Assembly: GCA_036505055.1 (NCBI GenBank)
Contig: DASXUE010000021.1
Coordinates: forward strand, 42,467-106,466
Direction: 5' to 3'
Source: Gemmatimonadales bacterium
Lineage (GTDB): Bacteria > Gemmatimonadota > Gemmatimonadetes > Gemmatimonadales > GWC2-71-9
DNA: 64,000 bases
The number at the start of each line of letters is the position of its first letter. Position 1 is the first letter of the stretch. Both the position numbers and the translations under genes were made by a program. Shown here piece after piece: positions 5,973 to 53,146 of this stretch. Under the pieces are notes generated by a model. It saw nothing but the letters and a program-made list of their open reading frames with translations, ran no database searches and was not told the origin of the DNA.

Positions 5973-8900
5973 GGCGCGCGGCTGGTCACCACAAAGACGT
6001 TGAAGTCCGGCCCCGTGACGAGCGGGGCGTTCGGACTGCCCCCGATCGGCGCTTGCGCCGTCACACCGCCCATGGGGAAGGACAACGCTCCACCGCCGAA
6101 CGTGCCCGACGCCACCGGGGCGCCGAAGATCTGCTGCACGTTCCGGATCTCGTAGAGCCAGCCGGGCGGTACGATCCCCGTGAGATCGACGCTGACGCTG
6201 GACTGGCGGGTAGGGTTGTAGATCGCCACCGTCGCCCGCCCCGGCTCGTACAGGTTCGGCCGGACGACGATCTTGGGCGCCGTCGGCTTCCCCGCAATCG
6301 CTTGATCGGTCGCGGCCAACCCGGTCGCCTGCTGCCATCCCGCGAAGGTGTAGGACGTCCCCTTGAGAATCCACGCCTTCGCGGCGGGGTCGCGATAATG
6401 CAGATTGCCGCTCCATGTCTGCCCGCTCGTGCTGGGGTCGTTCAGGCGCGCCATGGTGGCGTCGCCCACGAACGTATTCCCGATCCACTGCAGGTTCTGC
6501 CAGTAGCCCACCTCGGTCATCTCGCCGCCGCCCACGATGTAGTTGTTCCGCACCGTCGTGGTGCCGTTCAGCAGCGTGTTGTAGCCCATCCGGATGTTCC
6601 AGAAGCCGTGCCCGGGCGAGAAGTACAGGATGTTGTCGGCCACGACGTCGTTGTCGGCCACCAGGTTGCCGCCGATTTGGAGGTTCGGGTTGTCGTCCGT
6701 CGACAGCTCGCCGTTGTTGAACAGCACGTTCCCCTCGAACGTCAGGTTCTTGAGGGTCCCGCTCGACTCCGAGTAGCCGTGAATGCCGAACCCGAACTGG
6801 TTGAAGATGATGTTGTCGCGCGCGACCTTGACGCCCGGGGTGTTGTTCTTGATGTAGATCCCGTGGCCGTCCGAGCGCGTGGACGTCTGGTGCCCGCCGT
6901 TGAAGATGATCCACCCGTAGATCTCGATGTTCTGCGCGTCGTACTCGGTGTACGTACCGTGCCCCGTATCGTGCACGATCAGGTTCACGAGCTTCACGTT
7001 GTTCGCGTTGCGCACGTACACGCCCGTCGGCCGCAGACCGAGGACGTCGCCGCTCCGCGCGGTCGAGGAGTTCATGACCTCGAGACCCCAGTAGACCGCC
7101 CACGACCCGTCCACGGTGAACCCTTCGAGCGCCGAGCCGTTGCCGTCCAGAATCGCCCGCTCGCCGGGGTAGGCCCGCATCACGATGGGCGCCGCCGACG
7201 TGCCCGTGAGGCTGCCCGTGAACGTCCCGACATACCTGCCGTCGCGCACCCAGACGGTATCGCCCGGCTTGATCCGGCCGCCGGCGCCCGACATCGCGGT
7301 GCGCAGATCCCACGGCCGCGAAATGCTGCCGTCGTTGCCGCTCGATCCCGTCGTCGTGACGTAGAACCCGGCGTGCACGGTGCCGCCGCCCGTCGTGACC
7401 GTGACGGTGGCCGAACCGCTCTTGCCTTCACTCGTGGCGGTGATCGTCGCGCTGCCCGCGAGCAGGCCGGTGACGAGACCAGTCCCGTTGACGCTCGCGA
7501 CCCCCGTGTTGCTGCTCGCCCACGTGACCGCCCGACCGGTCAAGACGCCACCGGCCGAGTCCTTGGTCGTGGCGGCGAGTTGCACTGTCCCGCCGGCCGC
7601 GACGCTCGCCGAGGCCGGACTGACCGTCACCGAAGCGACGGGGACGTTCGCGACCGTAACCGCCGCCGTCCCGCTCTTCCCTTCGCTCGTGGCGGTGATC
7701 GTCGCCGAGCCCGCCACCTTGGCCGTGACCAGGCCGGCGGCACTCACCGTCGCGACGGTCGTGTTGCTGCTCACCCAGGTGATCGCCCGCCCCGTCAACA
7801 CGTTACCGGCCGAGTCCTTGGTGGTGGCCGTCAACTGCGCCGTCTTGCTGACGAACAGGCTGACCGAGGCCGGCGCGATCGTCACCGAGGCCACCGGGAC
7901 CACCGTCACCGTGATCGCCGACGTGCCGTTCTTGCCTTCACTGGTCGCGGTGATCGTGGCCGACCCCGCCGCGACGCCTGTGACCAACCCGCTCGCCGAC
8001 ACCGTGGCGACGCCGGCCGCGCTCGTGCTCCACGTGACCGTGCGTCCGGTCAACACGCCTCCGGCCGAGTCCTTGGTCGTGGCAGTCAGTTGAGCCGTCG
8101 CACCCACGCGGATGCTCGCCGACACGGGACTCACCGTCACCGTTGCCACCGGCACTGCGTTCACCGCGACGATGGCGGTCCCGCTCTTCCCTTCACTCGT
8201 CGCCGTGATCGTGGCCGATCCCACCGCGACCCCGCTGACCAACCCACTGGCCGACAGCGTCGCCACCCCGGCCGCGCTCGTCGTCCAGGTAACCACACGC
8301 CCGCCGAGGACATTACCAGCCGAGTCTTTGGTGGTCGCCGTGAGCTGCACGGTCCCGCCAATCACCAGGCTCGGTGCCGCCGGACTCACTGTGACCGTCG
8401 CCACCGGGGCGAGCGTCACTGAGACGGCCGCCGTGCCGCTCTTCCCTTCGCTCGTCGCCGTGATCGTCGCGGACCCCGCCCCGACTCCGGTAACCAAGCC
8501 ACTGGCGGATACCGTAGCGACCCCTGCGGCGCTCGTCGTCCACGTGAGCGCGCGCCCGGTCAGTACGTTCCCGGCCGAGTCCTTCGGCGTGGCCGTGAGC
8601 TGGGTCGTACCGCCGACCCGGATGCCCGCCGACGCCGGACTCACCGTCACCGTCGCCACGGGCACGGCGCTCACGGTGACTGCCGCGGTTCCACTCTTGC
8701 CTTCGCTCGTCGCGGTGATCGTGGCCGATCCCACCGCGACCCCGCTGACCAACCCACCGGCCGACACCGTCGCCACCCCGGCCGCGCTCGTCGTCCAGGT
8801 AACCACACGCCCGCTGAGGACGTTACCAGCCGAATCCTTGGTGGTCGCCGTGAGCTGCACGGCGCCGCCAACCACCAGGCTGGGTGCCGCCGGACTCACC

Positions 8901-10345
8901 GTGACTGTCGCCACCGGGACGAGCGTGACGGAGATGGCCGCCGTACCGCTCTTCCCTTCGCTGGTCGCCGTGATCGCCGCGGACCCCGCGCCGACGCCAC
9001 TGACCAGGCCACTCGCCGACACCGTGGCGACGCCGGCTGCGCTCGTCGCCCACGTGACCGCGCGCCCGGTCAGAACGTTGCCTGCCGAATCCTTGGGGGT
9101 CGCCGTGAGCTGAGTCGTACCGCCGACCCGGATGCCCGCGGACGCCGGACTCACCGTCACCGTCGCCACGGGCACGGCGCTCACCGTGGCCGCGGCGGAT
9201 CCACTCTTGCCTTCGCTCGTGGCGGTGATCGTCGCGGATCCCGCCGCGACGCCGGTCATGAGCCCGCCGGCCGATACCGTTGCCACGGCCGGTGCGCTGC
9301 TCGCCCACGTGACCACGCGTCCCGTCAGCGGATTGCCATTCGCGTCCTTCGGAGTGGCGGTGAGCTGCGCCGTCTGACCGACCAGCACGCTCGGCGAGGC
9401 GGGGCTCACGGTTACCGAGGCCACCGGCACTGGGGTCACCGTGATCGCCGCCGTGCCGTTCCTGCCCTCACTACTGGCCGTGATCGTGGCCATCCCGGCA
9501 GCGCCGCCGGTCACCAGCCCGGTCCCACTCACCGCCGCCACCGGCGCGTTGCTCGTCGTCCAGGTGATCGTCCGCCCGGTGAGCGGATTCCCATTGGCGT
9601 CCCTCGGCGTCGCCGTCAGTTGCACGCTCTGGCCAGCCGTCACGCTCGCCGACGCGGGGCTCACCGTCACCGACGCCACCGGCACCACCGTCACCGTGAT
9701 CGCCGCCGTGCCGCTCTGCCCCTCACAGACGGCGGTCACCGTGGCGACACCCGCGGCCATGCCGCTCGCGAGCCCGCTGCCGTTGACGGTGACCACCCCG
9801 GGGTTGGTCGAGGCCCAGGTCACCACCCGCCCACTCAGCGCATTGCCGTCCGCATCGTACGGCGTCGCGGTCAGCTGCACCGTTTGCCCGATCATGACGC
9901 CCGCCGTGGCCGGACTGACCGCGACGGTCACCACCGTCGCGGGCGTCACCGTCACGACGGCCGTGTCAGACGGTCCTCCCGGATTCCCTTTGGCGACGAC
10001 TTTGACTTTTCCGGTATCCGCACCGGCCCGATAGCGTCCGCGATGCTGGCCGTTGGTCGTGCTCGTGTCGACGATGCTGCCGCTCGTGACGCTCCAGCTC
10101 ACCGCCATCGCGGCCGTGTCGCCCGTGCCCGTGACGCCGACGGCGGTGAAGTCGGTGGCTTGGTACTGCTGCAAGGTGAACGTCTTGGGGGAGACTTCGA
10201 GCCGATACGCATTCTCACCAACTGGCGGCCGCGTGGGCAACTCACACGAGACCACCGCGGCGATGGCCAGCGCCACCGCCGTGAAGCCGACGCCCTGCTG
10301 TCGCATCCGGGCCAGACGCTGGGCCAGCTTGAAGGTGAAAGGCAT
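5969..10345 (-). CDS. giant cell-surface protein: signal/lipobox, 1 divergent + 10 canonical Big_2 Ig-like domains, C-terminal beta-helix module
   Basis: ATG 10345 is preceded by GGAGGA (the ORF-track TTG at 10357 lies inside the SD). N-terminus ...AVALAIAAVVSC. Ten 85-aa units of the form VTVSPAS..QLTAT.KD..GN.L.GR.VTW..S...VATVS..GLV.G...GSATITATSEGKSG. The last ~470 aa are paralogous to the 2230-3762 product. Confidence 0.85.
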   Translation of the reverse strand: MPFTFKLAQRLARMRQQGVGFTAVALAIAAVVSCELPTRPPVGENAYRLEVSPKTFTLQQYQATDFTAVGVTGTGDTAAMAVSWSVTSGSIVDTSTTNGQHRGRYRAGADTGKVKVVAKGNPGGPSDTAVVTVTPATVVTVAVSPATAGVMIGQTVQLTATPYDADGNALSGRVVTWASTNPGVVTVNGSGLASGMAAGVATVTAVCEGQSGTAAITVTVVPVASVTVSPASASVTAGQSVQLTATPRDANGNPLTGRTITWTTSNAPVAAVSGTGLVTGGAAGMATITASSEGRNGTAAITVTPVPVASVTVSPASPSVLVGQTAQLTATPKDANGNPLTGRVVTWASSAPAVATVSAGGLMTGVAAGSATITATSEGKSGSAAATVSAVPVATVTVSPASAGIRVGGTTQLTATPKDSAGNVLTGRAVTWATSAAGVATVSASGLVSGVGAGSAAITATSEGKSGTAAISVTLVPVATVTVSPAAPSLVVGGAVQLTATTKDSAGNVLSGRVVTWTTSAAGVATVSAGGLVSGVAVGSATITATSEGKSGTAAVTVSAVPVATVTVSPASAGIRVGGTTQLTATPKDSAGNVLTGRALTWTTSAAGVATVSASGLVTGVGAGSATITATSEGKSGTAAVSVTLAPVATVTVSPAAPSLVIGGTVQLTATTKDSAGNVLGGRVVTWTTSAAGVATLSASGLVSGVAVGSATITATSEGKSGTAIVAVNAVPVATVTVSPVSASIRVGATAQLTATTKDSAGGVLTGRTVTWSTSAAGVATVSASGLVTGVAAGSATITATSEGKNGTSAITVTVVPVASVTIAPASVSLFVSKTAQLTATTKDSAGNVLTGRAITWVSSNTTVATVSAAGLVTAKVAGSATITATSEGKSGTAAVTVANVPVASVTVSPASASVAAGGTVQLAATTKDSAGGVLTGRAVTWASSNTGVASVNGTGLVTGLLAGSATITATSEGKSGSATVTVTTGGGTVHAGFYVTTTGSSGNDGSISRPWDLRTAMSGAGGRIKPGDTVWVRDGRYVGTFTGSLTGTSAAPIVMRAYPGERAILDGNGSALEGFTVDGSWAVYWGLEVMNSSTARSGDVLGLRPTGVYVRNANNVKLVNLIVHDTGHGTYTEYDAQNIEIYGWIIFNGGHQTSTRSDGHGIYIKNNTPGVKVARDNIIFNQFGFGIHGYSESSGTLKNLTFEGNVLFNNGELSTDDNPNLQIGGNLVADNDVVADNILYFSPGHGFWNIRMGYNTLLNGTTTVRNNYIVGGGEMTEVGYWQNLQWIGNTFVGDATMARLNDPSTSGQTWSGNLHYRDPAAKAWILKGTSYTFAGWQQATGLAATDQAIAGKPTAPKIVVRPNLYEPGRATVAIYNPTRQSSVSVDLTGIVPPGWLYEIRNVQQIFGAPVASGTFGGGALSFPMGGVTAQAPIGGSPNAPLVTGPDFNVFVVTSRAP
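7376..9925 (-). repeat. ten tandem 255-bp coding repeats (Big_2 domains)
   Basis: The 85-aa period can be read in the translation. Shadow ORFs 8161-8361 and 8671-8871 are near-identical at a 510-bp offset. Confidence 0.9.
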
Positions 10346-10355
10346 CGCTTCCTCC

Positions 10356-10485
10356 AAAAAAAAGAAGGCCGCCGGTTCGACCCCGAGAGGTCGACGCTGG
10401 CGGCCCGGCTGGCATGGCGGCTGATGCCGCGGTAGCCCCGTTAGCTCTGCGTCACCGCCTTTCGGCGGCTTTGCTCTGAGCAGCG
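10356..10485 (-). promoter_or_regulatory. structured 5' leader element, copy B (candidate riboswitch/attenuator) ending in terminator + U8, then SD and ATG of the giant gene
   Basis: Minus-strand RNA: CGCUGCUCAGAGCAAAGCCGCCGAAAGGCGGUGACGCAGAGCUAACGGGGCUACCGCGGCAUCAGCCGCCAUGCCAGCCGG + GGCCGCCAGCGUCGACCUCUCGGGGUCGAACCGGCGGCC + UUCUUUUUUUUGGAGGAAGCGAUG. Confidence 0.55.
10367..10405 (-). terminator. intrinsic-terminator-like hairpin with U-tract inside the leader
   Basis: Outer stem GGCCGCC/GGCGGCC plus inner stem UCGACC/GGUCGA, followed by UUCUUUUUUUU (A8 on the plus strand at 10356-10363). Confidence 0.55.
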
Positions 10486-10519: not shown

Positions 10520-10651
10520 GGAAAACGAAACCGGGCCGCCGCAATCGACTGGAGTCGATTCGCTGGCGGCCCGGCTGGCATGGCGGCTGGTGCCGCTGTA
10601 GCCCCGTTGGCTCTGCGTCACCGCCTTTCGGCGGCTATGCTCTGAGCAGCG
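10520..10651 (-). promoter_or_regulatory. structured leader element, copy A (tandem duplicate, 166-nt period)
   Basis: The 5' ~80 nt are nearly identical to copy B. The hairpin GGCCGCCAGCGAAUCGACUCCAGUCGAUUGCGGCGGCC keeps the outer stem but has a different, still self-complementary, inner stem. It is followed by CGGUUUCGUUUUCC. Confidence 0.5.
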
Positions 10652-10848: not shown

Positions 10849-12915
10849 TCACTGAGGTCGACTCGTGACCACAAAAACGTCGAATGCCGGCCCCGTCACG
10901 AGCGGGGCGTTCGGGCTCCCACCGATCGGTGCCTCGGCCGTCACGCCGTTCGTCGGGACCTGTACCACCCCGCCGCCGTAGGTGCCGCTCGCCACCGGCG
11001 GACCGAAGGGCGTCTGCACGTTCCGGATCTCGTACGCGTACCCCGGGGTCACGACCCCGCTGAGATCGACGCCGACGCTCCCCTGTCCGCCCCAATTGTA
11101 AATCGCCACCGTGGCCCGGCCGGCCTCGTACAGATGGGGACGGATCACGACCTTGGTCGACGTCGGCGGCTGCGCAATGGCCTGGTCTCCGCTGGCGAGT
11201 CCCGTCGCCAGCTGCCACTGGGGGAACGTGTATTCCGGGATCAGGTAGCGCCATTCGGCCTGGGTCGGGTCGCGGTAATGGAGGTTTCCGCTCCAGGTGT
11301 GCCCGCTGGTGTTGGGATCCTGCAGGCGAATCATGTCGGCCGTCCCGATGAAGCTGTTGCCCAGAACCTGTAGGCCCGCCCAGAAGCCCACTTCCATGAT
11401 CTCGCTGCCACCCACGATGTAGTTGTTGCGCACGACGGCGTGGCCGTTGGGATATATCGAGAATGGCTGCCCCATGCGGACGTTCAACCCGCCGTGCCCG
11501 GGCGAAAAGTAGGTCAGGTTGTCCGCCACGAGATCGTTGTCCGCGACGCGCAGGCCCCCGAGCAGCAGGTTCGGGTTGTGGTAGTCCGACAACTCGCCGT
11601 TGTTGAACAGGATATTCCCGGTGATCAGGAGATTCCGCAGCGCGCCGTCCGATTCGGTGTAGGCGTGGATCCCGTGGCCGAACTGGTTGAAGATCACGTT
11701 GTCCCGGACCACCACGTCCCCGGGGCCGTCGTGCTTCACATAGATCCCGTGCCCGTCCGAACGGGTGCCGTTCTGATGGCCGCCGTTGAAGATGATCCAC
11801 CCGTAGATCTCGATATTGTGGGCGAAGTACGCGATGAAGGTCCCGTGGCCGGCGTCGTGCACGATCAGGCTGATCAGCTTGACGTTGCTGGCGTTGCGCA
11901 CGAAGACCCCGGTCGGCCGGAGCCCCAGCCCGGCGCCAATCCGGTCGGTCATCGAGTTCATAATCTCGAGCCCCCAGTACACCGCCCACGAGCCGTCGAC
12001 GTCGAACGTGCTGCCGCTGTTGCCGCCGTTGCCGTCGATGATCGCTCGCTCGCCCGGATAGGCCCGCACCACGATCGGCGCGGCGGCGGTCCCGGCCAGC
12101 GAGGTCGTAAACGACCCCTGGTACGTGCCGCCCCGGACCCAGACCGTGTCCCCGGGGTGTACGCGCCCGCCGGCGCCCGAGAGGGCCGTCTGGAGGTCCC
12201 AGGGGGCGCCCGCGCTTCCGTCGCCGGCGCCCGAGCCATTGGGCGCCACGTAGTGGCCGACAGGCAGGACCACGACCGTGGCCGCCACGCCGGCACCAGC
12301 AAAGGTGGCGACGATCTGCGTCCCGCCCGCGCCCTGCGCCGTGACGGTGGCCGTGCTGTCGCTCGTCGACTTCACGGCCGCGACGCCGGGGGCGAGCGTC
12401 GCCCAGACGACCGGTCCGGCGACGGGATCGCCCAGCTCGTCCCGTACCCGTGCCGTGAGCACGCCCGAGTCGGCGACGATCAGGGTATCCAGGACCGGCT
12501 CGATCGTGATCGTGACGCTGCCCAGCGCGACCTCGATAGCGACCTGGCCGGAGAGCGGTGTGAGCGTGATTTGGATGGTCGGGGTTGACCCAGCGTGGAC
12601 GTCGAGGACCGTCGTGCCGCGGTGGGTCTCGATACCCCCCGCGTCGTACGCGTGCATCGTGAGCGTCCGGTTCGAACCGGCCGGCAGCGCGACGCTGCCG
12701 ATGGCGAGCCCGTTCGTGACCGGGATGTTGAAGACGAGCGGCGCCGTGATGTCGGGGGCGGTGACCTGCACCACGACGAGCGCCACCGAGGTCGCCGACA
12801 CGTCGGCCCGCAGCACGAGGGTCACGGTGGGGGGGACGGAAGGTGGGCGCGTCAGGTCGCCCGGCGCGCAGGCCGCCAGCCCTAAACACAAGCCTAACAA
12901 CGCGGAACGCGACAT
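10849..12915 (-). CDS. lipoprotein: Ig-like + Big_2 N-terminal module fused to beta-helix module (paralog 3)
   Basis: ATG 12915 gives MSRSALLGLCLGLAAC (lipobox). The N-terminal ~190 aa are paralogous to the 13726-14403 product. The C-terminal ~470 aa are closely similar to the giant protein tail. Confidence 0.8.
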   Translation of the reverse strand: MSRSALLGLCLGLAACAPGDLTRPPSVPPTVTLVLRADVSATSVALVVVQVTAPDITAPLVFNIPVTNGLAIGSVALPAGSNRTLTMHAYDAGGIETHRGTTVLDVHAGSTPTIQITLTPLSGQVAIEVALGSVTITIEPVLDTLIVADSGVLTARVRDELGDPVAGPVVWATLAPGVAAVKSTSDSTATVTAQGAGGTQIVATFAGAGVAATVVVLPVGHYVAPNGSGAGDGSAGAPWDLQTALSGAGGRVHPGDTVWVRGGTYQGSFTTSLAGTAAAPIVVRAYPGERAIIDGNGGNSGSTFDVDGSWAVYWGLEIMNSMTDRIGAGLGLRPTGVFVRNASNVKLISLIVHDAGHGTFIAYFAHNIEIYGWIIFNGGHQNGTRSDGHGIYVKHDGPGDVVVRDNVIFNQFGHGIHAYTESDGALRNLLITGNILFNNGELSDYHNPNLLLGGLRVADNDLVADNLTYFSPGHGGLNVRMGQPFSIYPNGHAVVRNNYIVGGSEIMEVGFWAGLQVLGNSFIGTADMIRLQDPNTSGHTWSGNLHYRDPTQAEWRYLIPEYTFPQWQLATGLASGDQAIAQPPTSTKVVIRPHLYEAGRATVAIYNWGGQGSVGVDLSGVVTPGYAYEIRNVQTPFGPPVASGTYGGGVVQVPTNGVTAEAPIGGSPNAPLVTGPAFDVFVVTSRPQ

Positions 12916-13729: not shown

Positions 13730-14403
13730 TCCGGTGCGCCGGCGGGTGGCGGACGCTCGCCCGTCGCGGCAGCCTCGCCGCCTGTCTGTGGCTCGCCGCG
13801 TGCCTGCCCGGCGACCCCACGCGCCCTGAGCCGGTGGGCGTCACCCTCGTCGTCCGGGCTCAGGTGTCGGCCACATCCGTCGCGCTGGTCGTGGTCCAGG
13901 TCACCGCTCCCGACATCACTACGCCACTCGGCTTCAACATCCCCGTGACGAGCGGCCTCGCGGTGGGGAGCGTCACGCTTCCGGCGGGGTCGCATCGGAC
14001 GCTCACGATGCGCGCGTACGACGCCTCGAGTGTCGAGACCCACCGCGGCGCGACGATCGTCGACGTCCATGAAGGGACGAACCCGACCGTTCAGGTGACC
14101 CTGACGCCGCTCAGCGGGCAGATCCCCATCGAGGTGGAGCTGGGCAGCGTGACGGTGACGATCGTGCCGGTGGCGGACACGGTGGCCGTCGCCGACTCGG
14201 GCCTGCTCACGGCACGCGTGCGGGACGGGGTCGGCGCTCCGGTGCCCGGCCCCGTGAGTTGGGCGACGCTCGCTCCCAACATCGCGCTCGCCCGTGCGAC
14301 GAGCGACAGCACGGCGACGGTCACCGCGCGAGGCACCGGCACGACTCAGATCTTCGCGGCGTTTGGCGGGGTCGGCGCCACGGCCACGATCGTGGTGCCC
14401 TAG
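13726..14403 (+). CDS. lipoprotein with Ig-like + Big_2 domains (close paralog of the N-terminus of the 10849-12915 product)
   Basis: GTG 13726 overlaps the upstream TGA (GTGA). Lipobox ...LAACLWLAAC. About three quarters identical by eye to residues ~30-218 of the 10849-12915 product. Confidence 0.7.
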   Translation: MIRCAGGWRTLARRGSLAACLWLAACLPGDPTRPEPVGVTLVVRAQVSATSVALVVVQVTAPDITTPLGFNIPVTSGLAVGSVTLPAGSHRTLTMRAYDASSVETHRGATIVDVHEGTNPTVQVTLTPLSGQIPIEVELGSVTVTIVPVADTVAVADSGLLTARVRDGVGAPVPGPVSWATLAPNIALARATSDSTATVTARGTGTTQIFAAFGGVGATATIVVP

Positions 14404-14882
14404 CGCAGCAGCGTCTTCAGCGGCACGTCGCCGCTGCCGCGCAGCGCGACGCGCTTGTCGCCGAGCGGCGTGTCGAGCAGCACGGCGCCGGTGATCCCGT
14501 AGCGCAGCCCCTGGCGCGTGAGCAGCCCGCGCGCCGCCGCCCCCACCCCGGACCACTGAAACCGCACCGGCATCACGACCTGGCTGTGGTTCACCGGCGA
14601 GAGATCGAGCGGCTTGTCGATCAGCGCGTCACCGAAGTGGGTGCCCTCGAGGTCGAGGCCGACCTCGAGACGGGTGCTGCGAATGCGGTAGTCGTTCGGG
14701 TTGTACACGTCGAACACGAGGTCGAGCGTGCCGCCGGTGAGGCTCATCCCCGTGACGTTGATCTGTTTCAGCTGAATTTGCGGCTCCTCGAACTTGAGGA
14801 CGGCGCGGAGGGTGGCACAACCGGACGCCACGAGACAAGACGCCAAGACGCCAACGAGCACGGCGTGGCGTCTTGGCGTCAT
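14400..14882 (-). CDS. LEA_2/WHy-like lipoprotein
   Basis: ATG 14882 gives [22 protein letters not shown]. The body (INVTGMSLTGGTLDLVFDVYNPN...) resembles LEA type-2/NDR1-like domains. ATGA overlap with the rarA stop. Confidence 0.65.
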   Translation of the reverse strand: MTPRRHAVLVGVLASCLVASGCATLRAVLKFEEPQIQLKQINVTGMSLTGGTLDLVFDVYNPNDYRIRSTRLEVGLDLEGTHFGDALIDKPLDLSPVNHSQVVMPVRFQWSGVGAAARGLLTRQGLRYGITGAVLLDTPLGDKRVALRGSGDVPLKTLLR

Positions 14883-14888
14883 GGCGTC
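14837..14888. repeat. inverted pair of (GGCGTCTT)n octamer arrays forming a 14-bp perfect hairpin
   Basis: 14839-14852 (gacgccaagacgcc) is the reverse complement of 14867-14880 (ggcgtcttggcgtc). The loop is 14 nt. Confidence 0.85.
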
Positions 14889-16198
14889 GCCTTTTTCTTG
14901 AGATCCTCCCACCACTCTATCCTCTCTTTCACGGTCTTCTCGTACCCAAACTCCGTCGGCTCGTACCATTTCACCCCCCGCAGCGTGTCCGGCAGGTATT
15001 CCTGTGGCGCGTACGCATTGTCGTGTGCGTGCGCGTACTTGTACCCCGCCCCGTAGCCCAGGTCTTTCATCAAGGGTGTCGGCGCATTGCGCACATGGAG
15101 CGGCACGGCGTCGGCGGGGTGGTCACGGGCCGCGTCCATCGCCCGCCCGAACGCTTCATACACGCGGTTCGATTTCGGCGCCGTGGCCAGATAGACGGCG
15201 GCTTCCGCCAGCGCCAATTCCCCCTCGGGCGAGCCCAGGAAGTGGTAGGCATCCTTGGCCGCCAAGGCGACCGAGAGGGCCCGCGGGTCCGCGAGCCCCA
15301 CATCCTCGGCGGCGATGCGCACCAGCCGGCGCGCGAGGTACAGGGGGTCCTCGCCTCCCGCCAGCATCCGGGCGAGCCAGTACAGCGACCCCTCGACGTC
15401 GCTGCCACGCACCGCCTTGTGGAGCGCGGAAATCAGATTGAAGTGGGATTCACCCGACTTGTCGTAGACAGGAAGGGGCTTCTCGAGGACCTGCAGCACG
15501 ACGTCGCGGGATACGGGATGCGGGATGCGGGATGCGTGAATGTGTTTGAGCACCGCTTCCAGCGTATTGAGACCGCGTCGGGCGTCACCTTGAGCGTGAC
15601 TGACGAGCAGCTCGACTCCTTCGGGGCTCACGCATCCCGCATCCCCCATCCCGCATCCCGCCTGCTCCAGCGCTCTCCGGATCACCGTCCGGATGTGCTC
15701 GTCCGTCAGCGGCTCGAGCACGAACACCCTGCACCGTGAGAGCAGGGCGCCCGTCAGCTCGAAGCTCGGGTTCTCGGTGGTCGCGCCGATCAGGGTGATG
15801 ATACCGTTTTCGACCCAGGGGAGAAACGCGTCTTGCTGCCCGCGGTTGAACCGGTGAATCTCGTCGCAGAAGAGGATCGTCCCCTGGCCGTTGTACTTGA
15901 GGCGCTCTTCGGCCTCTTTGATGATCTCGCGCACCCGGCCCACCCCTTCGGTCACGGCGGAGAAGGGCTCGAAGTGACGCTCGGTGTAATTGGCGATGAT
16001 CCGCGCCAGCGTCGTTTTCCCCGACCCGGGCGGCCCCCAGAAAATGCACGACCCCACGTCGCCGCGGCGGATCAAGTCGCCCAGCGCTTTCCCAGGACCA
16101 AGGAGGTGCTCCTGCCCGAGGAACTGCTCGAGGTTGCGAGGCCGCATGCGCGCGGCGAGGGGCTCGGTGGAGCCTTGGAAGAGCGTGGGTTCAGACAT
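14879..16198 (-). CDS. rarA: replication-associated recombination protein A (AAA+ ATPase)
   Basis: ATG 16198 (MSEPTLFQG...). Walker [10 protein letters not shown], Walker [10 protein letters not shown], and the [23 protein letters not shown] and YWLARML motifs. Confidence 0.9.
15506..15661. repeat. inverted pair of (GCGGGAT)n heptamer arrays inside rarA
   Basis: Arm 15506-15536 is gcgggat acgggat gcgggat gcgggat gcg. Arm 15631-15661 is cgc atcccgc atccccc atcccgc atcccgc. The spacer is 94 nt. Confidence 0.9.
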
Positions 16199-16199
16199 G

Positions 16200-16691
16200 T
16201 CGGGATGCGGGATGCGGGATGCGGGGTGCGTGCAAACCGCACCAGCACGCGGCGAATTGATGGTGAGCAACGTGCTGCCGGAGCTTACCTTCTCGAACGT
16301 GAGCAAGCTCAATCGCCTGGATGCTTGGCGCACAGCCCAAGAACTCGCCTACCAGTCTCATCTCCTGACCCTCGCTCCTCAGTTGAGCCGGCATTTCGCT
16401 CTCATTGATCAGATTCGTCGGGCCGCACTCTCTGTTCCTGCGAACATCGCGGAGGGCTACGCCCTGGGGACGACACCGCAGTTCCTTCGTGGTCTCAAGA
16501 TTGCGCTTGGATCTAACACGGAGCTCTACAGCCATCTGACCGTGCTCGCCAGACTTGATCTCGTCCCATCGCCGGACGTGCGCCTGGTGCTTGATTTGTG
16601 TAATCGAGTAATTGCGATGACCATCGGTCTCATTCGCAAGCTGAGTCTTCGCCCATCGTAACGCATCCCGCATCCCGCATCTCGCATCCCG
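16200..16691 (+). mobile_element. IVS-like/miniature cassette: four-helix-bundle gene bounded by ~30-bp inverted heptamer arrays
   Basis: Arms at 16200-16230 and 16662-16691 are reverse complements. The cargo is on the opposite strand to its neighbours and is visibly more AT-rich. The unit fills the gap between the ZIP stop and the rarA start exactly. Confidence 0.5.
16260..16661 (+). CDS. four-helix-bundle protein (23S rRNA-IVS protein / Avd-like family)
   Basis: ATG 16260, 133 aa. Family hallmarks ...QIRRAALSVPANIAEGY... and ...IALGSNTELYSHL.... The upstream part of ORF 15990-16661 is antisense to rarA and was rejected. Confidence 0.8.
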   Translation: MVSNVLPELTFSNVSKLNRLDAWRTAQELAYQSHLLTLAPQLSRHFALIDQIRRAALSVPANIAEGYALGTTPQFLRGLKIALGSNTELYSHLTVLARLDLVPSPDVRLVLDLCNRVIAMTIGLIRKLSLRPS

Positions 16692-17655: not shown

Positions 17656-18567
17656 TCAGCGTCGAACCGCCGCCCCATCCTTCGGATCGGGATATTTGTC
17701 CCGCCACGCCCCGATCGCGCGGCCGCGCTCGATCTCCTTGTTGGAGCTCTTCAGCCGCGTGAGCAGCGACGCGGGATCCTTCGCGAGGTAGGCCGTAATC
17801 AACACGGGATCGCGCGGCAGCTTGTCGACGTGCGGGCCATCGCCCAGCTCCGGCAACCAGATCCTGGCGGCGCCCACATCCCGCCAGAGAGCGACGAGGC
17901 GCGACACCTTCTTGGCAGTCTCGATCCCCTTGAACCACTCGTCGCGCACCCGCTCGGCGGACAGCTGGGCGAGCCCCTGCGCGTTGGCCTTGGCGGCCTC
18001 GAGCGTGCGGGCTTGAATGCGGAACTCGAACCGCGCGCTGAAGCGCAACGCCCGCAAGATCCGCAGGTAGTCCTCCTGGAAGCGCCAGTTCGGATCGCCG
18101 ACGGCGCGGATCAGCTTTCGGCCCAGATCCTCCTCGCCCTTGAACGGGTCGCGCCACTCGTGCTTCAGCGGGTGATAGGCGATCGCGTTGATCGTGAAGT
18201 CGCGGCGCGCCAGGTCGTCCATGAGCGAGACGCCGAACTCGACCACCGCGTGGCGGCCGTCGGTCTTGATGTCCTTCCGGAACGTGGTCACCTCGTGCAT
18301 GCGGTTGTCCTTATCGAGGACTCCGACCGTCCCGTGCTCGATGCCGACCGGGACCGTGCGCTTGAACAACGTGCGCACGACATCGGGCGGCGCCGCCGTG
18401 GTGAGGTCGATCTCGGCTTTCGGGAGGTTGTGCGCCGGGCTGCTCAGGCCGAGGAGCGCGTCTCGGATCCAGCCGCCGACGCACCACGTTTCGTAGCCGG
18501 CCTCCTCGAGCGTCTTGGCAATCTTGAGAGCCTCGGGGGGGACCGGCAGCCGCTCGGGAAACGCCAT
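17656..18567 (-). CDS. cca: CCA tRNA nucleotidyltransferase (head/neck/body), terminated by in-frame TGA
   Basis: ATG 18567 (MAFPERLPVPPEALKIAK...). The WCVGGWIRDALLG, DLTT and RDFTINA motifs are those of class II nucleotidyltransferases. Confidence 0.85.
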   Translation of the reverse strand: MAFPERLPVPPEALKIAKTLEEAGYETWCVGGWIRDALLGLSSPAHNLPKAEIDLTTAAPPDVVRTLFKRTVPVGIEHGTVGVLDKDNRMHEVTTFRKDIKTDGRHAVVEFGVSLMDDLARRDFTINAIAYHPLKHEWRDPFKGEEDLGRKLIRAVGDPNWRFQEDYLRILRALRFSARFEFRIQARTLEAAKANAQGLAQLSAERVRDEWFKGIETAKKVSRLVALWRDVGAARIWLPELGDGPHVDKLPRDPVLITAYLAKDPASLLTRLKSSNKEIERGRAIGAWRDKYPDPKDGAAVRR

Positions 18568-18963: not shown

Positions 18964-19698
18964 TCATCCGCACAGCACGCTCCCCCCGTTGACGTTCAGA
19001 ATCTCCCCGGTGATATGCCGGGCGAGGTCGGAGCACAGGAACGCGATCGGTCCGGCGACGTCTTCCGCGCTCGCCACGCGCCCGAGCGGGATCGTCCGCT
19101 CGATCGCACCCCTCCCCCGTCCCCCGTCCCGTTCGTACGGTCCCTGGCTCATCTCGGTATCGACCCACCCCGGCGCCACGCAGTTCACGGTCACCCGCGG
19201 CGCCAGCTCCACGGCGAGCGACTTCGTGAGCGAGATGACCGCGCCTTTGGTGGCGGCGTAGTCGGCGTGGAACGCTTCGCCGCGCTGGCCGGCCGTGGAT
19301 GACACGAGGACGATCCGGCCGCCGTCCGGCAGGTGCGGAATGGCGGCGCGGCACACGTAGAACACGGCGTCGAGGTTGGCCCGGCGGGTCGCCTCCCACT
19401 GCGCCTCGGGCAGGCGGGCGAGGGGCACGTCGTCCGATGGCCAAATGCCGTGGTTCACGATGAGGAGGTCGAGGCCGCCGAGGCTCCGCACGACGTCGTC
19501 CACGGCGCGCTTGGCCGTGGCCGCATCACCGAGATCGCCCTGAATCGTCGCGCTGACCGCCGGGTCGGGCTCGGGCTTCCGGCTGCGGTATCCGGCGGCG
19601 ACTTTCGCACCCGCGCGGGCGAGCAGCCGCGCCGTGGCCAGCCCGATTCCCCGCCCTCCGCCCGTGACGAACGCGCGCTTGGCCGCGAGGTCGATCAC
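18964..19698 (-). CDS. SDR family oxidoreductase (FabG-like)
   Basis: TGGGRGIG cofactor motif, YAATKGA active-site region, 244 aa. Confidence 0.85.
   Translation of the reverse strand: MIDLAAKRAFVTGGGRGIGLATARLLARAGAKVAAGYRSRKPEPDPAVSATIQGDLGDAATAKRAVDDVVRSLGGLDLLIVNHGIWPSDDVPLARLPEAQWEATRRANLDAVFYVCRAAIPHLPDGGRIVLVSSTAGQRGEAFHADYAATKGAVISLTKSLAVELAPRVTVNCVAPGWVDTEMSQGPYERDGGRGRGAIERTIPLGRVASAEDVAGPIAFLCSDLARHITGEILNVNGGSVLCG
19109..19131. repeat. orphan (GGGGGAC/GTCCCCC)n heptamer array inside the SDR gene
   Basis: cccctcc cccgtcc cccgtcc cg; the first 21 nt are identical to the left arm in accB. Translated as ...ERDGGRGRGAI.... Confidence 0.8.

Positions 19699-21269: not shown

Positions 21270-21273
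<4 letters not shown>
20983..21273 (-). CDS. small hypothetical protein (96 aa)
   Basis: GTG 21273 overlaps the alaS TGA, and its own stop overlaps the next ATG (operon-coupled). No recognisable family. Confidence 0.5.
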
Positions 21274-23885
<2,612 letters not shown>

Positions 23886-33355: not shown

Positions 33356-35533
33356 CTATTCACTCAAGTCTTCGAGGCCCACGAGCACGTCTCGCGGTTT
33401 CGACCCGTTGGCCGGACCCAGGATTCCCGCCAGCTCGAGCTGATCGATGATGCGCGCCGCGCGGCCGTACCCGATGCTCATGCGCCGCTGCAGCAGCGAC
33501 GTCGAGCCGAGCTGGTTCTGAATGCACACCTCGGCGGCCTGTCGGAACAGCGGATCGCGCTCCCCTGACTCCTGGCTCCCAACTCCTTCTTCGCCTTGCT
33601 TCTCGGCCTCCTCGATCGCCGCCACCTGCTCGTCGATCGTCGGCTTGCCGGGGACTGGGGCGGCCGCGCGGGGCGCGTGCGCCTTGTACCACTCCATCAG
33701 GCGCTCCGTCTCGTCCGTCGAGATGAACGCCCCCTGCACACGCATCGGCTCGCTCTTGCCCGGCGGCAGGAATAGCATGTCGCCGTTCCCGAGCAGCGTC
33801 TCGGCGCCGTTCTGGTCCAGGATCGTGCGGCTGTCCACCTTGGCCGAGACGCGGAACGCGACCCGGCAGGGGAAGTTGGCCTTGATGAGTCCCGTGATCA
33901 CGTTCACCGACGGCCGCTGCGTGGCGAGGAGGAGGTGAATCCCGACGGCGCGGGACTTCTGGGCCAGCACCGCAAGCGGCGTCTCGATCTCGCTCTGGAC
34001 GGTCAGCATCAGATCCGCCAGCTCGTCCACGATGAGCACGACGTACGGGACGATGCCATCGGTGTACTCGGCATCGAACGGCAGCTCCTTTTGGATACCG
34101 GCCTGGGTGGCGAGCGTCTCGCGTGGGCCCTGCAGCGGCCGCTTCTCTTCCACCTTCTTGTTGAAGTCGGCGATGTTGCGCGCGTGGTTGGCGTGCAGCA
34201 GCCGGTAGCGCCGCTCCATCTCCCACACGGCCCACTTCAGGACGTTCGCCGCTTTGTGGTGGCTGGTCACCACCGGCAGCCCCAGATGGGGCAGTGCCGC
34301 GTACATCGACAGCTCCACCATCTTCGGGTCGATCATCAGCAGCTTCAGTTTATCGGGCGGATGGGCGTACACGAGGCTCGTGATGATCGCGTTGATGCAC
34401 ACCGACTTCCCCGACCCGGTGGCGCCAGCGATCAGCAGGTGGGGCATCTTGGCGAGGTCGTCCACCACCTCGTCGCCTTCCAGGTTGCGGCCCAGCACGA
34501 CCGGCAGCGTGCGGGTCGGGCGTCGGAACTCCGCCGTGTCGATCAGCTCGCGGACGTGCACCATGCGCGGCGTGGGATTCGGCACCTCGATGCCGATCGC
34601 CGCCTTGCCGGGAATCGGCGCGACGATCCGCAGCGACTGGGCCCGCATGGCGAGCGCCAGATCGTCGGCGAGCCCCGCCACGCGTCCCACCTTCACGCCG
34701 CGTCCCGGCGTCAGCTCGAATCGCGTCACCACTGGTCCCACGGTGCGGTCCGCGATCTGCGCCCCGACGCGGAACGTCTCGAGCGTCGCCACCAGCCGGC
34801 GGCCCATTTCCTCGATCTGCGCCGCGTCGGCATCGGCGACAGCGCCGGGACCTTCGTTCAACAACTCTATAGGCGGGATCAAAGAGCCCGCAGGGGGCGG
34901 TGTGGGCTTGGGGAGCAGTGCGCTCTTGGACTTGCGCTCTTTCGGGAAACGAGAAACGGGAAACGGGGCAGGCGCAGCCGACGCGTCCGGCTCGCGCTTC
35001 GCCTTGAGACCTACCCTCTCCGTTTCCCGTATCTCGTTTCCCGTTTCCCGGCTTCTCAGCAGTGCCAGCGGATGCCACCCGATCGTCACGATGCCCAGCG
35101 CCGAGAGCGCGAACACTCCCGCCAGAACGCCGCCCGCCGTTCCCACGGCGCCCTGGAGGCCCGCGGCCAGGAATGCCGGCAGCAGGCCGACGAGTTTCTG
35201 GGTCGCGCTCCATAGCGCGTAGTCGAACGGGAAGTGGGGGCCGATCGCGATGCCGATGCCGTAGGGCACGAGCAGGATCAGGCCGGCGCCGAGCACCGCG
35301 GCGCGTCCCGACGACAGGGGCCCCAGCCGTCCGAACGCGGCCAGCGCCCACCCGACGCCCAGCATCGGCACGATCACAGCCCCCAGGCCCAGCACCTTCC
35401 ACAACAAGCCGCCGATGGAGCGCCCCCAGCTGCCCGTCAGGGGCAGCTGTAGCAGCGTGAGGCCCAGGAACAGGCCCACGACGAGGGCCGCGATGCCGAT
35501 GAGCTCTTGCCGGTGCGCGTCCTTCGGCTTCAT
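33356..35533 (-). CDS. ftsK: DNA translocase FtsK
   Basis: ATG 35533 (ATGA overlap with comB). N-terminal TM segments, IAGATGSGKSV Walker A, and a C-terminal winged-helix gamma domain (IGYGRAARIIDQLE). Confidence 0.95.
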   Translation of the reverse strand: MKPKDAHRQELIGIAALVVGLFLGLTLLQLPLTGSWGRSIGGLLWKVLGLGAVIVPMLGVGWALAAFGRLGPLSSGRAAVLGAGLILLVPYGIGIAIGPHFPFDYALWSATQKLVGLLPAFLAAGLQGAVGTAGGVLAGVFALSALGIVTIGWHPLALLRSRETGNEIRETERVGLKAKREPDASAAPAPFPVSRFPKERKSKSALLPKPTPPPAGSLIPPIELLNEGPGAVADADAAQIEEMGRRLVATLETFRVGAQIADRTVGPVVTRFELTPGRGVKVGRVAGLADDLALAMRAQSLRIVAPIPGKAAIGIEVPNPTPRMVHVRELIDTAEFRRPTRTLPVVLGRNLEGDEVVDDLAKMPHLLIAGATGSGKSVCINAIITSLVYAHPPDKLKLLMIDPKMVELSMYAALPHLGLPVVTSHHKAANVLKWAVWEMERRYRLLHANHARNIADFNKKVEEKRPLQGPRETLATQAGIQKELPFDAEYTDGIVPYVVLIVDELADLMLTVQSEIETPLAVLAQKSRAVGIHLLLATQRPSVNVITGLIKANFPCRVAFRVSAKVDSRTILDQNGAETLLGNGDMLFLPPGKSEPMRVQGAFISTDETERLMEWYKAHAPRAAAPVPGKPTIDEQVAAIEEAEKQGEEGVGSQESGERDPLFRQAAEVCIQNQLGSTSLLQRRMSIGYGRAARIIDQLELAGILGPANGSKPRDVLVGLEDLSE
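34942..35049. repeat. inverted pair of (CGGGAAA)n heptamer arrays in the ftsK linker
   Basis: Arm 34942-34967 is cgggaaa cgagaaa cgggaaa cgggg. Arm 35019-35049 is ccg tttcccg tatctcg tttcccg tttcccg. The spacer is 51 nt. Confidence 0.9.
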
Positions 35534-36252
35534 GCCGTGATGCGGCGGTCGGCGTACACGGGCACGACGGCGACGCGATCGGGAGCGGCGCACACGGCCA
35601 CATCTTCCGCCAGCCCCGCCTCGACCAGCTGGCGCGCGGCGGCGCTGGCCGCGAACGCGTCGCGCCACCCCCCCTGCTGGCCCGCGAGGTCGAGCGAGAC
35701 CTGGGCCGCGTCGTTCAGGGCCAGCTTGCGGATGCCCTTTTTCACGGCCTTGATGAGCCGTCCGGCCGTGTAGGCGTCTTCCAGCGCGAACTGTTTTTCC
35801 CGGCCGGCGCACAGGATGACCAGCTCGCCCCGCTCGTCGAACGCGGCGCGGGCGCGCTCGGTCACGGCCGTGAAATTGAGCGCCGCGGCCACCAGTACCG
35901 GGTCGCCCCCTTGCGCGACCACCAGCGCGGGCGTGCCGTTGGTCGTGGCGAGAAAGACCGTCTTCCCTCCCACCGCCTCGGGGGTCATTTCGCGGGGCGA
36001 GTTGCCGAGACCGAACCCCTCGATCTTCAGGCTGCGACGCTCCCCCGCCAGCACGATCCCGTCCTTCTCGAGGTTCGCGGTCAGGCGCACGGCTTCCTCG
36101 GACGTGGCGGCCGGGACGATCGCTTTGGCGCCCGCGGCGAGCGCCGTGACGATCGTGCTCGTGGCCCGCAGCACGTCGATGACGACGACCGCCCGGCCCG
36201 CGAGATCTCCCGCATTCAGGCCGGAGGGGGTGAAGTAGACGTCGATCTTCAT
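35530..36252 (-). CDS. comB: 2-phosphosulfolactate phosphatase family protein
   Basis: [13 protein letters not shown] and TTNGT motifs, 240 aa. Confidence 0.75.
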
Positions 36253-38767: not shown

Positions 38768-39254
38768 TGGGATCCACCCGGAAGAGGACTTGCCCGAACT
38801 CGACCGGCTGCGCGTTCTGCACGCACACTTCCTTCACGACTCCGCCGACCTCGGACTCGATCTCGTTCATGATCTTCATCGCTTCGATGACGCACACCAC
38901 CTGACCGACAGTGACGCGGCTCCCGACCTTCACGTAGGGCTGAGCGCCGGGCTCGGGGGCCGCATAGAAGGTCCCGACCATGGGAGACGGAATCCCGAGC
39001 AGATGGGAGGCGGGGGCTGCCACCGACCCCTCCCCCGTCCCCCGTCCCCCTTCCCCGGGCCGGGAGAGGGGGGACGGGGGAAGGGTGGGCTGCGCCACCA
39101 CGACGTGGCCGCCCGCGTTCCCCACCGCGTGGCCGGCTTTCGAGACCCGGACGGACGACCAAGCGCCGAACCACCCGCGCCGGATCTCGATGGCGCCCAC
39201 GTCCGGGGCGTCCTTCAGGATCTGCACGAGCTGCGCGATGATGTCGAGCTTCAT
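38760..39254 (-). CDS. accB: acetyl-CoA carboxylase biotin carboxyl carrier protein
   Basis: ATG 39254. The C-terminal biotinyl domain carries EAMKIMNEI. Only the C-terminal 164 codons of ORF 38760-40130 are credible. Confidence 0.9.
   Translation of the reverse strand: MKLDIIAQLVQILKDAPDVGAIEIRRGWFGAWSSVRVSKAGHAVGNAGGHVVVAQPTLPPSPLSRPGEGGRGTGEGSVAAPASHLLGIPSPMVGTFYAAPEPGAQPYVKVGSRVTVGQVVCVIEAMKIMNEIESEVGGVVKEVCVQNAQPVEFGQVLFRVDPNG
39027..39089. repeat. imperfect inverted pair of (GGGGGAC)n heptamer arrays in the accB linker
   Basis: Left arm: cccctcc cccgtcc cccgtcc cccttcc ccg. Spacer: ggc. Right arm: cgggagaggggggacgggggaagggtggg. Confidence 0.85.
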
Positions 39255-53122: not shown

Positions 53123-53146
53123 GGCGTCTTGGCGTCTTAGCGTCTT
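53123..53146. repeat. orphan (GGCGTCTT)3 octamer array
   Basis: ggcgtctt ggcgtctt agcgtctt, directly abutting the hairpin. Confidence 0.85.

Follow-up and report, generated by a model that had tools for sequence, protein, structure and literature searches.

The closest described counterparts of the element analyzed here are the G-rich heptameric simple sequence repeats (SSRs) of Xanthomonas (GGGAATC) and Nostoc (GGGGAYT), which consist of four units, frequently form convergent inverted pairs able to fold into a stem-loop, and adopt G-quadruplex (G4) structures in vitro (Rehm et al. 2015, PLoS One; PMC4692102). These repeats occupy the same loci in related species with variation in both sequence and length, a single unit dominates each genome, 89-93% of the arrays are intergenic, and their function was left unresolved (PMC4692102). 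Here we describe a convergent pair of heptamer arrays located within the reading frame of rarA (mgsA) in a 64-kb window, that is, the whole analyzed stretch of 64,000 nucleotides from a Gemmatimonadales bacterium (contig DASXUE010000021.1; G+C content 69%), together with its counterparts in other Gemmatimonadales and a neighboring cassette carrying a PF05635 gene. The Gemmatimonadales pairs share with the SSRs of Rehm et al. a 7-nt unit with a G3-4 tract (hflX sites, with GG only, being the exception), an extent of about four units and the convergent arrangement. They differ from them in belonging to another phylum, in the multiplicity of units found within one genome and at one site, and in lacking the bias towards non-coding DNA, since 71 of 78 short-spaced pairs lie inside open frames of at least 350 aa. 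Furthermore, their arms stand at orthologous codons on either side of native coding sequence, both arms turn over together, and their link to PF05635 has no equivalent in the description by Rehm et al. Within the known repertoire of bacterial repeats, the rarA pair is closest to this Xanthomonas/Nostoc class, as a variant of it.

Other systems present partial resemblances. Cyanobacterial heptanucleotide repeats of the short tandemly repeated repetitive (STRR) type, said to have been described by Mazel in 1990 and Vioque in 1997, reportedly include repeats that extend helix P12 of RNase P RNA. By these accounts, they resemble the rarA pair in being tandem heptamers, in having complementary arrays that flank a native element and in showing a strain-dependent unit at the same position, but they are said to reside in non-coding RNA or intergenic DNA, whereas the rarA arrays are translated. 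REPINs, in turn, are made up of two spaced inverted repeats that form a hairpin, and exist in hundreds of copies per genome as genome-specific sequence populations (Bertels & Rainey 2011; PMC3116915, PMC3337134). The pairs analyzed here are likewise inverted hairpin doublets present in many copies. The arms of repetitive extragenic palindromes (REPs) are, however, imperfect palindromes and extragenic, whereas the heptamer arms are tandem arrays, mostly intragenic, and the spacer between them can be conserved host coding sequence.

The rarA coding sequence (CDS) spans positions 14879-16198 of the minus strand and encodes a 439-aa protein with AAA+ and MgsA C-terminal domains (profile matches to PF00004, PF16193 and PF12002). 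The reading frame is open over 14879-16333 (minus), and the product of the true CDS is identical to database protein P0001, which aligns with E. coli MgsA (PDB 3PVS) over residues 10-432 (E = 8.8e-127). Repeat finders and reading of the sequence locate 4.4 copies of GCGGGAT at 15506-15536 and 4.4 copies of its reverse complement, CGCATCC, at 15631-15661. The earlier note on this DNA had reported 31-nt arms with two mismatches lying 94 nt apart, a description equivalent to the extended arms adopted here (15506-15539 and 15628-15661), which measure 34 nt each, are 94% complementary and stand 88 nt apart. On the sense strand of rarA, arm 1 (15628-15661, minus) is G-rich, with about 4.4 units of GCGGGAT and four GGG tracts that fit the putative G4 pattern G3N4 x 4, and lies over the D-x-x-RGLG loop; arm 2 (15506-15539, minus) is C-rich, the 94% reverse complement of arm 1, and falls on a length-variable loop. 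The CDS translation confirms that both arms are translated within rarA on either side of the GDARR block, and the proposal that repeat DNA is read through in frame with the housekeeping open reading frame (ORF) intact is supported. The enclosed segment (15540-15627, minus), which carries the GDARR block, is homologous in all RarA proteins and hence not part of any inserted element. The arrays are not a product of chance: allowing at most one mismatch, the window contains 15 occurrences of the 14-mer GCGGGATGCGGGAT where 0.10 would be expected, and none of 100 shuffles reaches 15. According to the 3PVS alignment and to low-confidence secondary structure from AlphaFold2, both arrays fall between helices; the AlphaFold2 model of RarA (31-sequence alignment, mean predicted local distance difference test score 51.8) was too low in confidence for surface mapping, and its secondary structure alone was used.

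Orthologous rarA loci were gathered from the Gemmatimonadales, 80 in all and each from a different species, amounting to 1.15 Mb in total. Complementary arrays are found at the same two positions in 47 species, with the G-rich arm 5' in every one of them, while 25 more distant Gemmatimonadales RarA orthologues show pairing at background level only. Site 1 in these 25 array-free orthologues is a canonical D-x-x-RGLG-x-LG loop, equal in length to that of array-bearing RarA; E. coli MgsA aligns across both sites essentially without length change, and the peptides at both sites are equal in length among the 120 closest RarA proteins. Hence, the array at site 1 overlays an ancestral loop and adds no residues. 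By the test that the earlier note itself proposed, the notion of an insertion fails at site 1, where E. coli MgsA and the 25 array-free orthologues encode a loop of the same length from non-repetitive DNA, whereas site 2 is truly length-variable. Nor is the depiction of the gene as colonized in the manner of a Rickettsia palindromic element (RPE) supported. RPEs are comparable in that repeat-derived sequence is translated in frame in housekeeping proteins at tolerant surface positions, but each RPE is inserted as one contiguous stretch of ~100-150 bp, belongs to a conserved family, adds residues and is present or absent among orthologues. In rarA, two separate arms of 31-34 nt with a variable unit surround native conserved coding sequence at orthologous positions in ~47 species, and site 1 is unchanged in length. 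MITEs (miniature inverted-repeat transposable elements) differ too, being contiguous and bounded by terminal inverted repeats, with duplication of the target site, because what lies inside the rarA pair is host coding sequence; the sequence at the rarA arms shows no evident target-site duplication.

Sequence comparison thus indicates that the arrays are a derived state over ancestral loops rich in Gly codons and in Pro codons, rather than a recent transposition or a contiguous element of the RPE kind. The pair is also old: one subclade carries it throughout at the same two codon positions, and the sister clade and E. coli lack it. In-frame length changes at rarA come in 21-nt steps, corresponding to three units (P0008, P0105). 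In a few species of the clade arm 1 has been deleted with the rarA gene retained, and many pairs have decayed to 4-8 mismatches in 32 nt. An assembly artefact was rejected as an explanation on the grounds that dozens of independent metagenome-assembled genomes, and finished plasmids too, show the same architecture. A protein-level function of the array peptides was rejected as well, given that the peptides differ freely from species to species and that nothing but the periodicity and complementarity of the nucleotides is retained.

What changes at these fixed positions is the unit itself. At least ten units occupy the rarA sites, depending on lineage (GCGGGAT, CGGGAAA, GCGGGAA, GGGAGCG/A, GGGGCGT, GGGGACT/AAT, GGGGGAC, GGGGAGA, GGGGAAG and GGGATTC), and a GGGA core is invariant among unit types in the codon-anchored alignment. 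The earlier note's idea of one and the same heptamer is not supported, since the unit varies among species while the two arms stay matched, a pattern suggestive of concerted evolution in place and not of copies of a single mobile sequence. Covariation between the arms was assessed on a codon-anchored, ungapped alignment of 15 species covering six unit types. In the arm-arm structure 84.8% of cells are paired and both sides have changed in 13 of 33 pairs; the covariation score is 0.268, whereas shuffles give 0.135 (none of 500 as high). Sliding the partner arm by 1-3 nt reduces pairing to 31-55%, but a shift of exactly one unit (7 nt) leaves 83.6% of cells paired, with a score of 0.280. This equally good register implies that what co-varies is the shared unit and not specific base pairs, and register-specific covariation was rejected on this basis. 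The region 15480-15690 (minus) is predicted to fold into an RNA with a long stem (-118.1 kcal/mol, against -86.9 +/- 4.5 in shuffles; z = -6.9), in keeping with the suggestion that the arms pair in mRNA or single-stranded DNA; no signature specific to RNA accompanies it, however, as mismatches between the rarA arms show no sense-strand G:U excess (30 of G:U type against 43 of A:C type, p = 0.16).

The history of the units is equally distinctive. Unit similarity at the rarA sites is uncorrelated with RarA divergence (Spearman 0.04), and vertical, gradual evolution of the unit was rejected as a result. Within the ~20-kb neighborhoods covered by the comparison, two sites of one genome carry an identical unit in 32% of comparisons, as opposed to 12% when one site is compared across species and 7% in an unrelated baseline. 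A conventional selected RNA helix would retain pairing yet lose periodicity, and the rarA pattern is therefore read as concerted evolution: to judge from these alignments, the positions are inherited, while the units turn over fast, jointly in the two arms and to some extent in step with neighboring pairs.

The rarA pair is not an isolated case. In alaS (CDS 21270-23885, minus), arms at 23194-23217 and 23314-23344 (minus) with GCGGGAT/GCGGGAA units bracket the EIWNLVFMQ block in frame; they are 81% complementary, and their unit variants, read 5' to 3', follow one another identically in the two arms instead of being mirrored. The C-rich arm runs into the codons of the universal PLPxPSVDTG motif. 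Array-free alaS orthologues have native loops of equal length (…SERGKGD… and …SRKNLPKPSVDTG), with no net length change at either site; as in rarA, the arrays lie over native loops rich in GGN or CCN codons. A third in-frame pair lies in an ftsK linker (34943-34966 and 35020-35043, minus; ORF 33356-35812), where 24-nt arms of unit CGGGAAA, 96% complementary and 53 nt apart, share a GGG-to-GAG deviation that is mirrored in both arms. Throughout the 1.15 Mb, arrays of at least 3.5 copies have period 7 in 232 cases, period 6 in 47 and period 8 in 9; the rounded copy number among 343 arrays is most often four units (171), followed by three (111) and five (58). Inverted pairs number 104, and 97 of them have the G-rich arm first, on either strand. 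Pairs are found in about one gene in ten, with no functional theme among the host genes. Homology confirms the identity of the pair-bearing genes rarA, alaS, ftsK, a cca-type gene and hflX, and pairs recur at fixed places in rarA, alaS, the PolyA_pol/CCA-type nucleotidyltransferase and an hflX-like GTPase. Compared with the shortest orthologues, the arrays at hflX amount to net insertions, and their units (GCGGAAT and similar) contain GG only, with no G3 tract. The rarA pair thus appears to belong to a Gemmatimonadales-wide family of convergent inverted pairs of heptamer arrays, of about four units each, with the G-rich arm 5' on either strand.

As for the window itself, its CCA-type gene is devoid of the array pair present at that site in ~24 other species. 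The gene contains an in-frame TGA at 17656-17658 (minus), at a Trp conserved in orthologues (…VRRWLSQVGEYADDLL), which could be a nonsense mutation, the mark of a pseudogene or an assembly error.

The explanation we favor, tentatively and at a little less than even confidence, is that the rarA arrays are the two arms of a single nucleic-acid-level element, hairpin- or G4-prone, which is maintained by concerted evolution and translated only incidentally. Homogenization among units, arms and nearby pairs calls for a copying process, and the patterns above suggest that the pair is kept periodic and complementary by copying of sequence between units, arms and nearby pairs rather than by selection on particular mRNA base pairs. 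The likeliest copying mechanism would be template switching during replication. With the G-first geometry, every nascent DNA strand would make the G-array first, and some 100-450 nt later the polymerase would meet a G-rich template able to fold as a hairpin or, where the units have G3, as a quadruplex of four tracts. Once stalled, the nascent 3' end could fold back and pair, at any 7-nt register, with the G-array made earlier on its own strand; copying of that array would homogenize arms and units and preserve period 7. In a coding frame, only changes of 21 nt would be expected to survive, as seen in P0008 and P0105. Such a process would account for the matched arms, the kept period, the lack of register-specific covariation and the near-absence of C-first geometry.

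Several points weigh against this explanation. The spacing of 88-430 nt between arms exceeds that of classical quasipalindrome correction, and the concordance of units within a genome concerns ~20-kb neighborhoods only. The hflX-site units, lacking G3 tracts, imply that a G4 block cannot be universal and is not required, which also weakens G4 formation as a universal explanation of these pairs. The many decayed pairs, with 4-8 mismatches in 32 nt, imply in turn that homogenization is not continuous. That pairs persist at fixed positions in essential genes, although a 7-nt unit carries a risk of frameshift, may indicate function. Finally, a purely passive replication-error model leaves unexplained the cross-phylum link between such arms and PF05635 genes.

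This link is apparent in the immediate vicinity of rarA. An array-framed cassette of ~493 bp (16199-16691, plus) consists of a G-array at 16201-16232, an ORF at 16260-16661 and a C-array at 16661-16691, and sits exactly between the stop of a ZIP transporter gene (16692) and the start of rarA (16198). Its ORF matches PF05635, the 23S rRNA-intervening-sequence or four-helix-bundle protein family (E = 5.5e-23), which we take to be a relative of Avd, the accessory protein of diversity-generating retroelements. The cassette arms measure 34 nt, are 91% complementary and stand 429 nt apart, and their unit matches that of the rarA and alaS pairs; the rarA ATG lies 2 nt from the cassette array, leaving no space for a Shine-Dalgarno sequence. 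A PF05635 ORF is found at the ZIP-rarA site in 19 of 81 species, framed by arrays in each of them, while in ~60 other species the site is empty and the ZIP stop codon overlaps the rarA start (…GTGTCGTGACCGAG). These empty sites identify the cassette of array, ORF and array as a discrete insertion between two coupled genes. A short repeat may be present at its junctions. In most genomes having both, the units flanking the PF05635 ORF and those of rarA are identical or one base apart.

The association extends well beyond this locus. The best 120 matches in a search for homologues of the PF05635 protein were all orthologues of the ZIP-rarA locus, but a tblastn search against plasmids recovered 17 distant copies, with 28-41% identity. 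Among the 16 plasmid genes inspected, 11 are framed by inverted short-period arrays, G-rich arm first and 360-520 nt apart, each with a unit of its own (heptamers or roughly 8-mers). These framed copies (L081, L082, L084, L086-L089, L091-L093 and L096) come from Calothrix, Nostoc, Geminocystis, Anabaena, Stanieria, Picosynechococcus, Azospirillum and Gemmatirosa. One further gene has a heptamer hairpin upstream only, and four have no flanking arrays, three of the latter being near-identical and adjacent to transposases. PF05635 genes are also found between adjacent cas genes (cas6-cas4 or cas10-cmr3) in L088 (Anabaena sp. 90), L093 (Picosynechococcus) and L095 (Pseudanabaena), a placement at gene junctions like that of the ZIP-rarA cassette. 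The cassette, although not the rarA pair, can be likened to the intervening sequences (IVSs) of 23S rRNA that carry an S23p/PF05635 ORF in Leptospira and Coxiella, since in both an ORF is enclosed by a long inverted-repeat stem at a precise point of a transcribed unit. An IVS, however, lies in helix 25 or 45 of 23S rRNA and is excised by RNase III, whereas the cassette lies between ZIP and rarA, or elsewhere between cas genes, and its stems are tandem heptamers; an Rfam scan detected no rRNA in the window.

These observations raise the possibility, which we consider the main rival to the favored explanation although less likely than it, of a system comparable to that of REPINs and REP-associated tyrosine transposases (RAYTs), in which the PF05635 protein would bind, maintain or mobilize heptamer-array hairpins. 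Pairs devoid of an ORF, like those of rarA, alaS and ftsK, would be non-autonomous sites acted upon in trans, and their units would change because they co-evolve with the PF05635 cassette or are converted from it. RAYT genes are flanked by REPs, and the PF05635 gene is, by analogy, a gene framed by the same repeats with which it is associated. The formal analogy to RAYT genes and REPs (PMC3337134) may be taken to favor the idea, and so may the coincidence of the cassette unit with that of the rarA and alaS pairs in the window, its identity or one-base distance to the rarA unit in most genomes with both, the discrete nature of the insertion with empty sites in ~60 species, and the bracketing of 11 of 16 distant plasmid genes by inverted arrays with the G-rich arm first. 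The plasmid matches are moreover concentrated in the Nostocales, a group with an excess of heptamer repeats (PMC4692102). On the other hand, a RAYT is a Y1 transposase of the IS200/IS605 kind, whereas the array-framed gene encodes a small four-helix-bundle protein, PF05635 having no known catalytic domain or activity. The gene is present in only 19 of 81 species, a count that refers to the ZIP-rarA locus, four PF05635 genes have no flanking arrays, and classical transposition is excluded by the native sequence between the rarA arms and by the unaltered length at site 1. Literature searches (Gemmatimonadetes heptamers; IVS protein and repeats; Xanthomonas and S23p) did not find the association of arrays with PF05635 described, nor published support for such a system. 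It is with considerable reserve that we entertain the broader proposition that PF05635 proteins and inverted heptamer arrays might form a previously unrecognized cross-phylum repeat system, either REPIN/RAYT-like or a generalized IVS, in which an autonomous array-framed cassette would insert at gene junctions and hundreds of ORF-less pairs (in rarA, alaS, ftsK, the cca-type gene and hflX) would be maintained or rewritten in trans.

An improbable alternative is that the pair is a functional mRNA element, whereby a stem of ~31 bp, or a switch between a 5'-arm G4 and the hairpin, would be selected for its effect on mRNA decay by RNase III, on ribosome pausing at domain boundaries or on the coupling of transcription and translation. 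IVS stems in rRNA, of like anatomy, are RNase III substrates; the predicted rarA stem is very stable (z = -6.9) and arm complementarity is kept across species. In addition, the four G-tracts per arm are the minimum for a G4, and similar repeats form G4 structures in vitro (PMC4692102). Yet compensation is not register-specific, the sense strand shows no G:U excess, and a helix does not require perfect unit periodicity. Many orthologues keep the gene with a badly decayed stem or with one arm lost, pairs lie in about one gene in ten with no functional theme, cleavage within essential ORFs would be costly, and Rfam at gathering thresholds returns no family match at the rarA-pair locus. The remaining explanation, that two copies of a mobile RPE- or MITE-like repeat inserted recently and independently into two variable rarA loops, might draw on the recurrence of the unit at several loci of the window, the net insertions at hflX, the variable length of rarA site 2 and the array-free rarA of the sister clade, but it is largely refuted and hardly credible, given that net length is unchanged at rarA site 1 and at both alaS sites, that different units at the same two positions in ~47 species would need repeated site-specific double hits, that strict G-first pairing (97 of 104) is unexpected for independent insertions, and that no target-site duplication is evident.

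The window contains further repeats and structured elements. Octamer arrays (AAGACGCC / GGCGTCTT) at 14836-14888 make up an inverted pair that covers the start codon and the signal peptide of an ORF, lipoprotein-like and overlapping the stop of rarA, and the same octamer recurs three times at 53123-53146, beside a GC-rich hairpin. Another octamer array (GACCGTCG / GGACGGTC-like, 4.4 copies) at 60711-60745 apparently falls in N-terminal or signal-peptide codons of a minus-strand ORF. Back-to-back inverted CCCGTCC/GGGACGG arrays at 39023-39089, with 33-nt arms, 82% complementary and 1 nt apart, present the rare C-first orientation, and single arrays of related units lie at 19109-19130 and 21611-21641. 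Larger repeats comprise a 255-nt tandem repeat of ~8 copies at 7416-9721, probably encoding domains that recur in a large surface protein, together with a 558-nt inverted repeat (12269-12826 / 13839-14396), 78% complementary and ~1 kb apart. Two tandem c-di-GMP-I riboswitch aptamers (Rfam RF01051) are located at 10396-10485 and 10562-10651 (minus), with scores of 56 and 53 bits.

Heptamer repeats have stood for decades as an unexplained excess in some bacterial genomes. The rarA locus reveals that complementary heptamer pairs can persist over the long term within the reading frames of essential genes, and that their positions are inherited while the 7-nt unit is swapped in both arms jointly. 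Arms of the same kind consistently frame the gene of a PF05635/IVS protein in three phyla. Both the site-stable, unit-labile behavior inside essential ORFs and the cross-phylum cassette are unexpected. The results also call for caution in annotation, for peptides of the GCEMRDAGC type are repeat read-through and not conserved motifs, a circumstance that affects protein-family alignments as well. Orthologous sites with many unit states, together with a cassette that has a clean empty site, provide test systems in which to tell apart a replication by-product, an RNA-processing signal and a protein-linked cis-site. If the PF05635-array system proved true, it would account for the heptamer excess in the Nostocales and now in the Gemmatimonadales.

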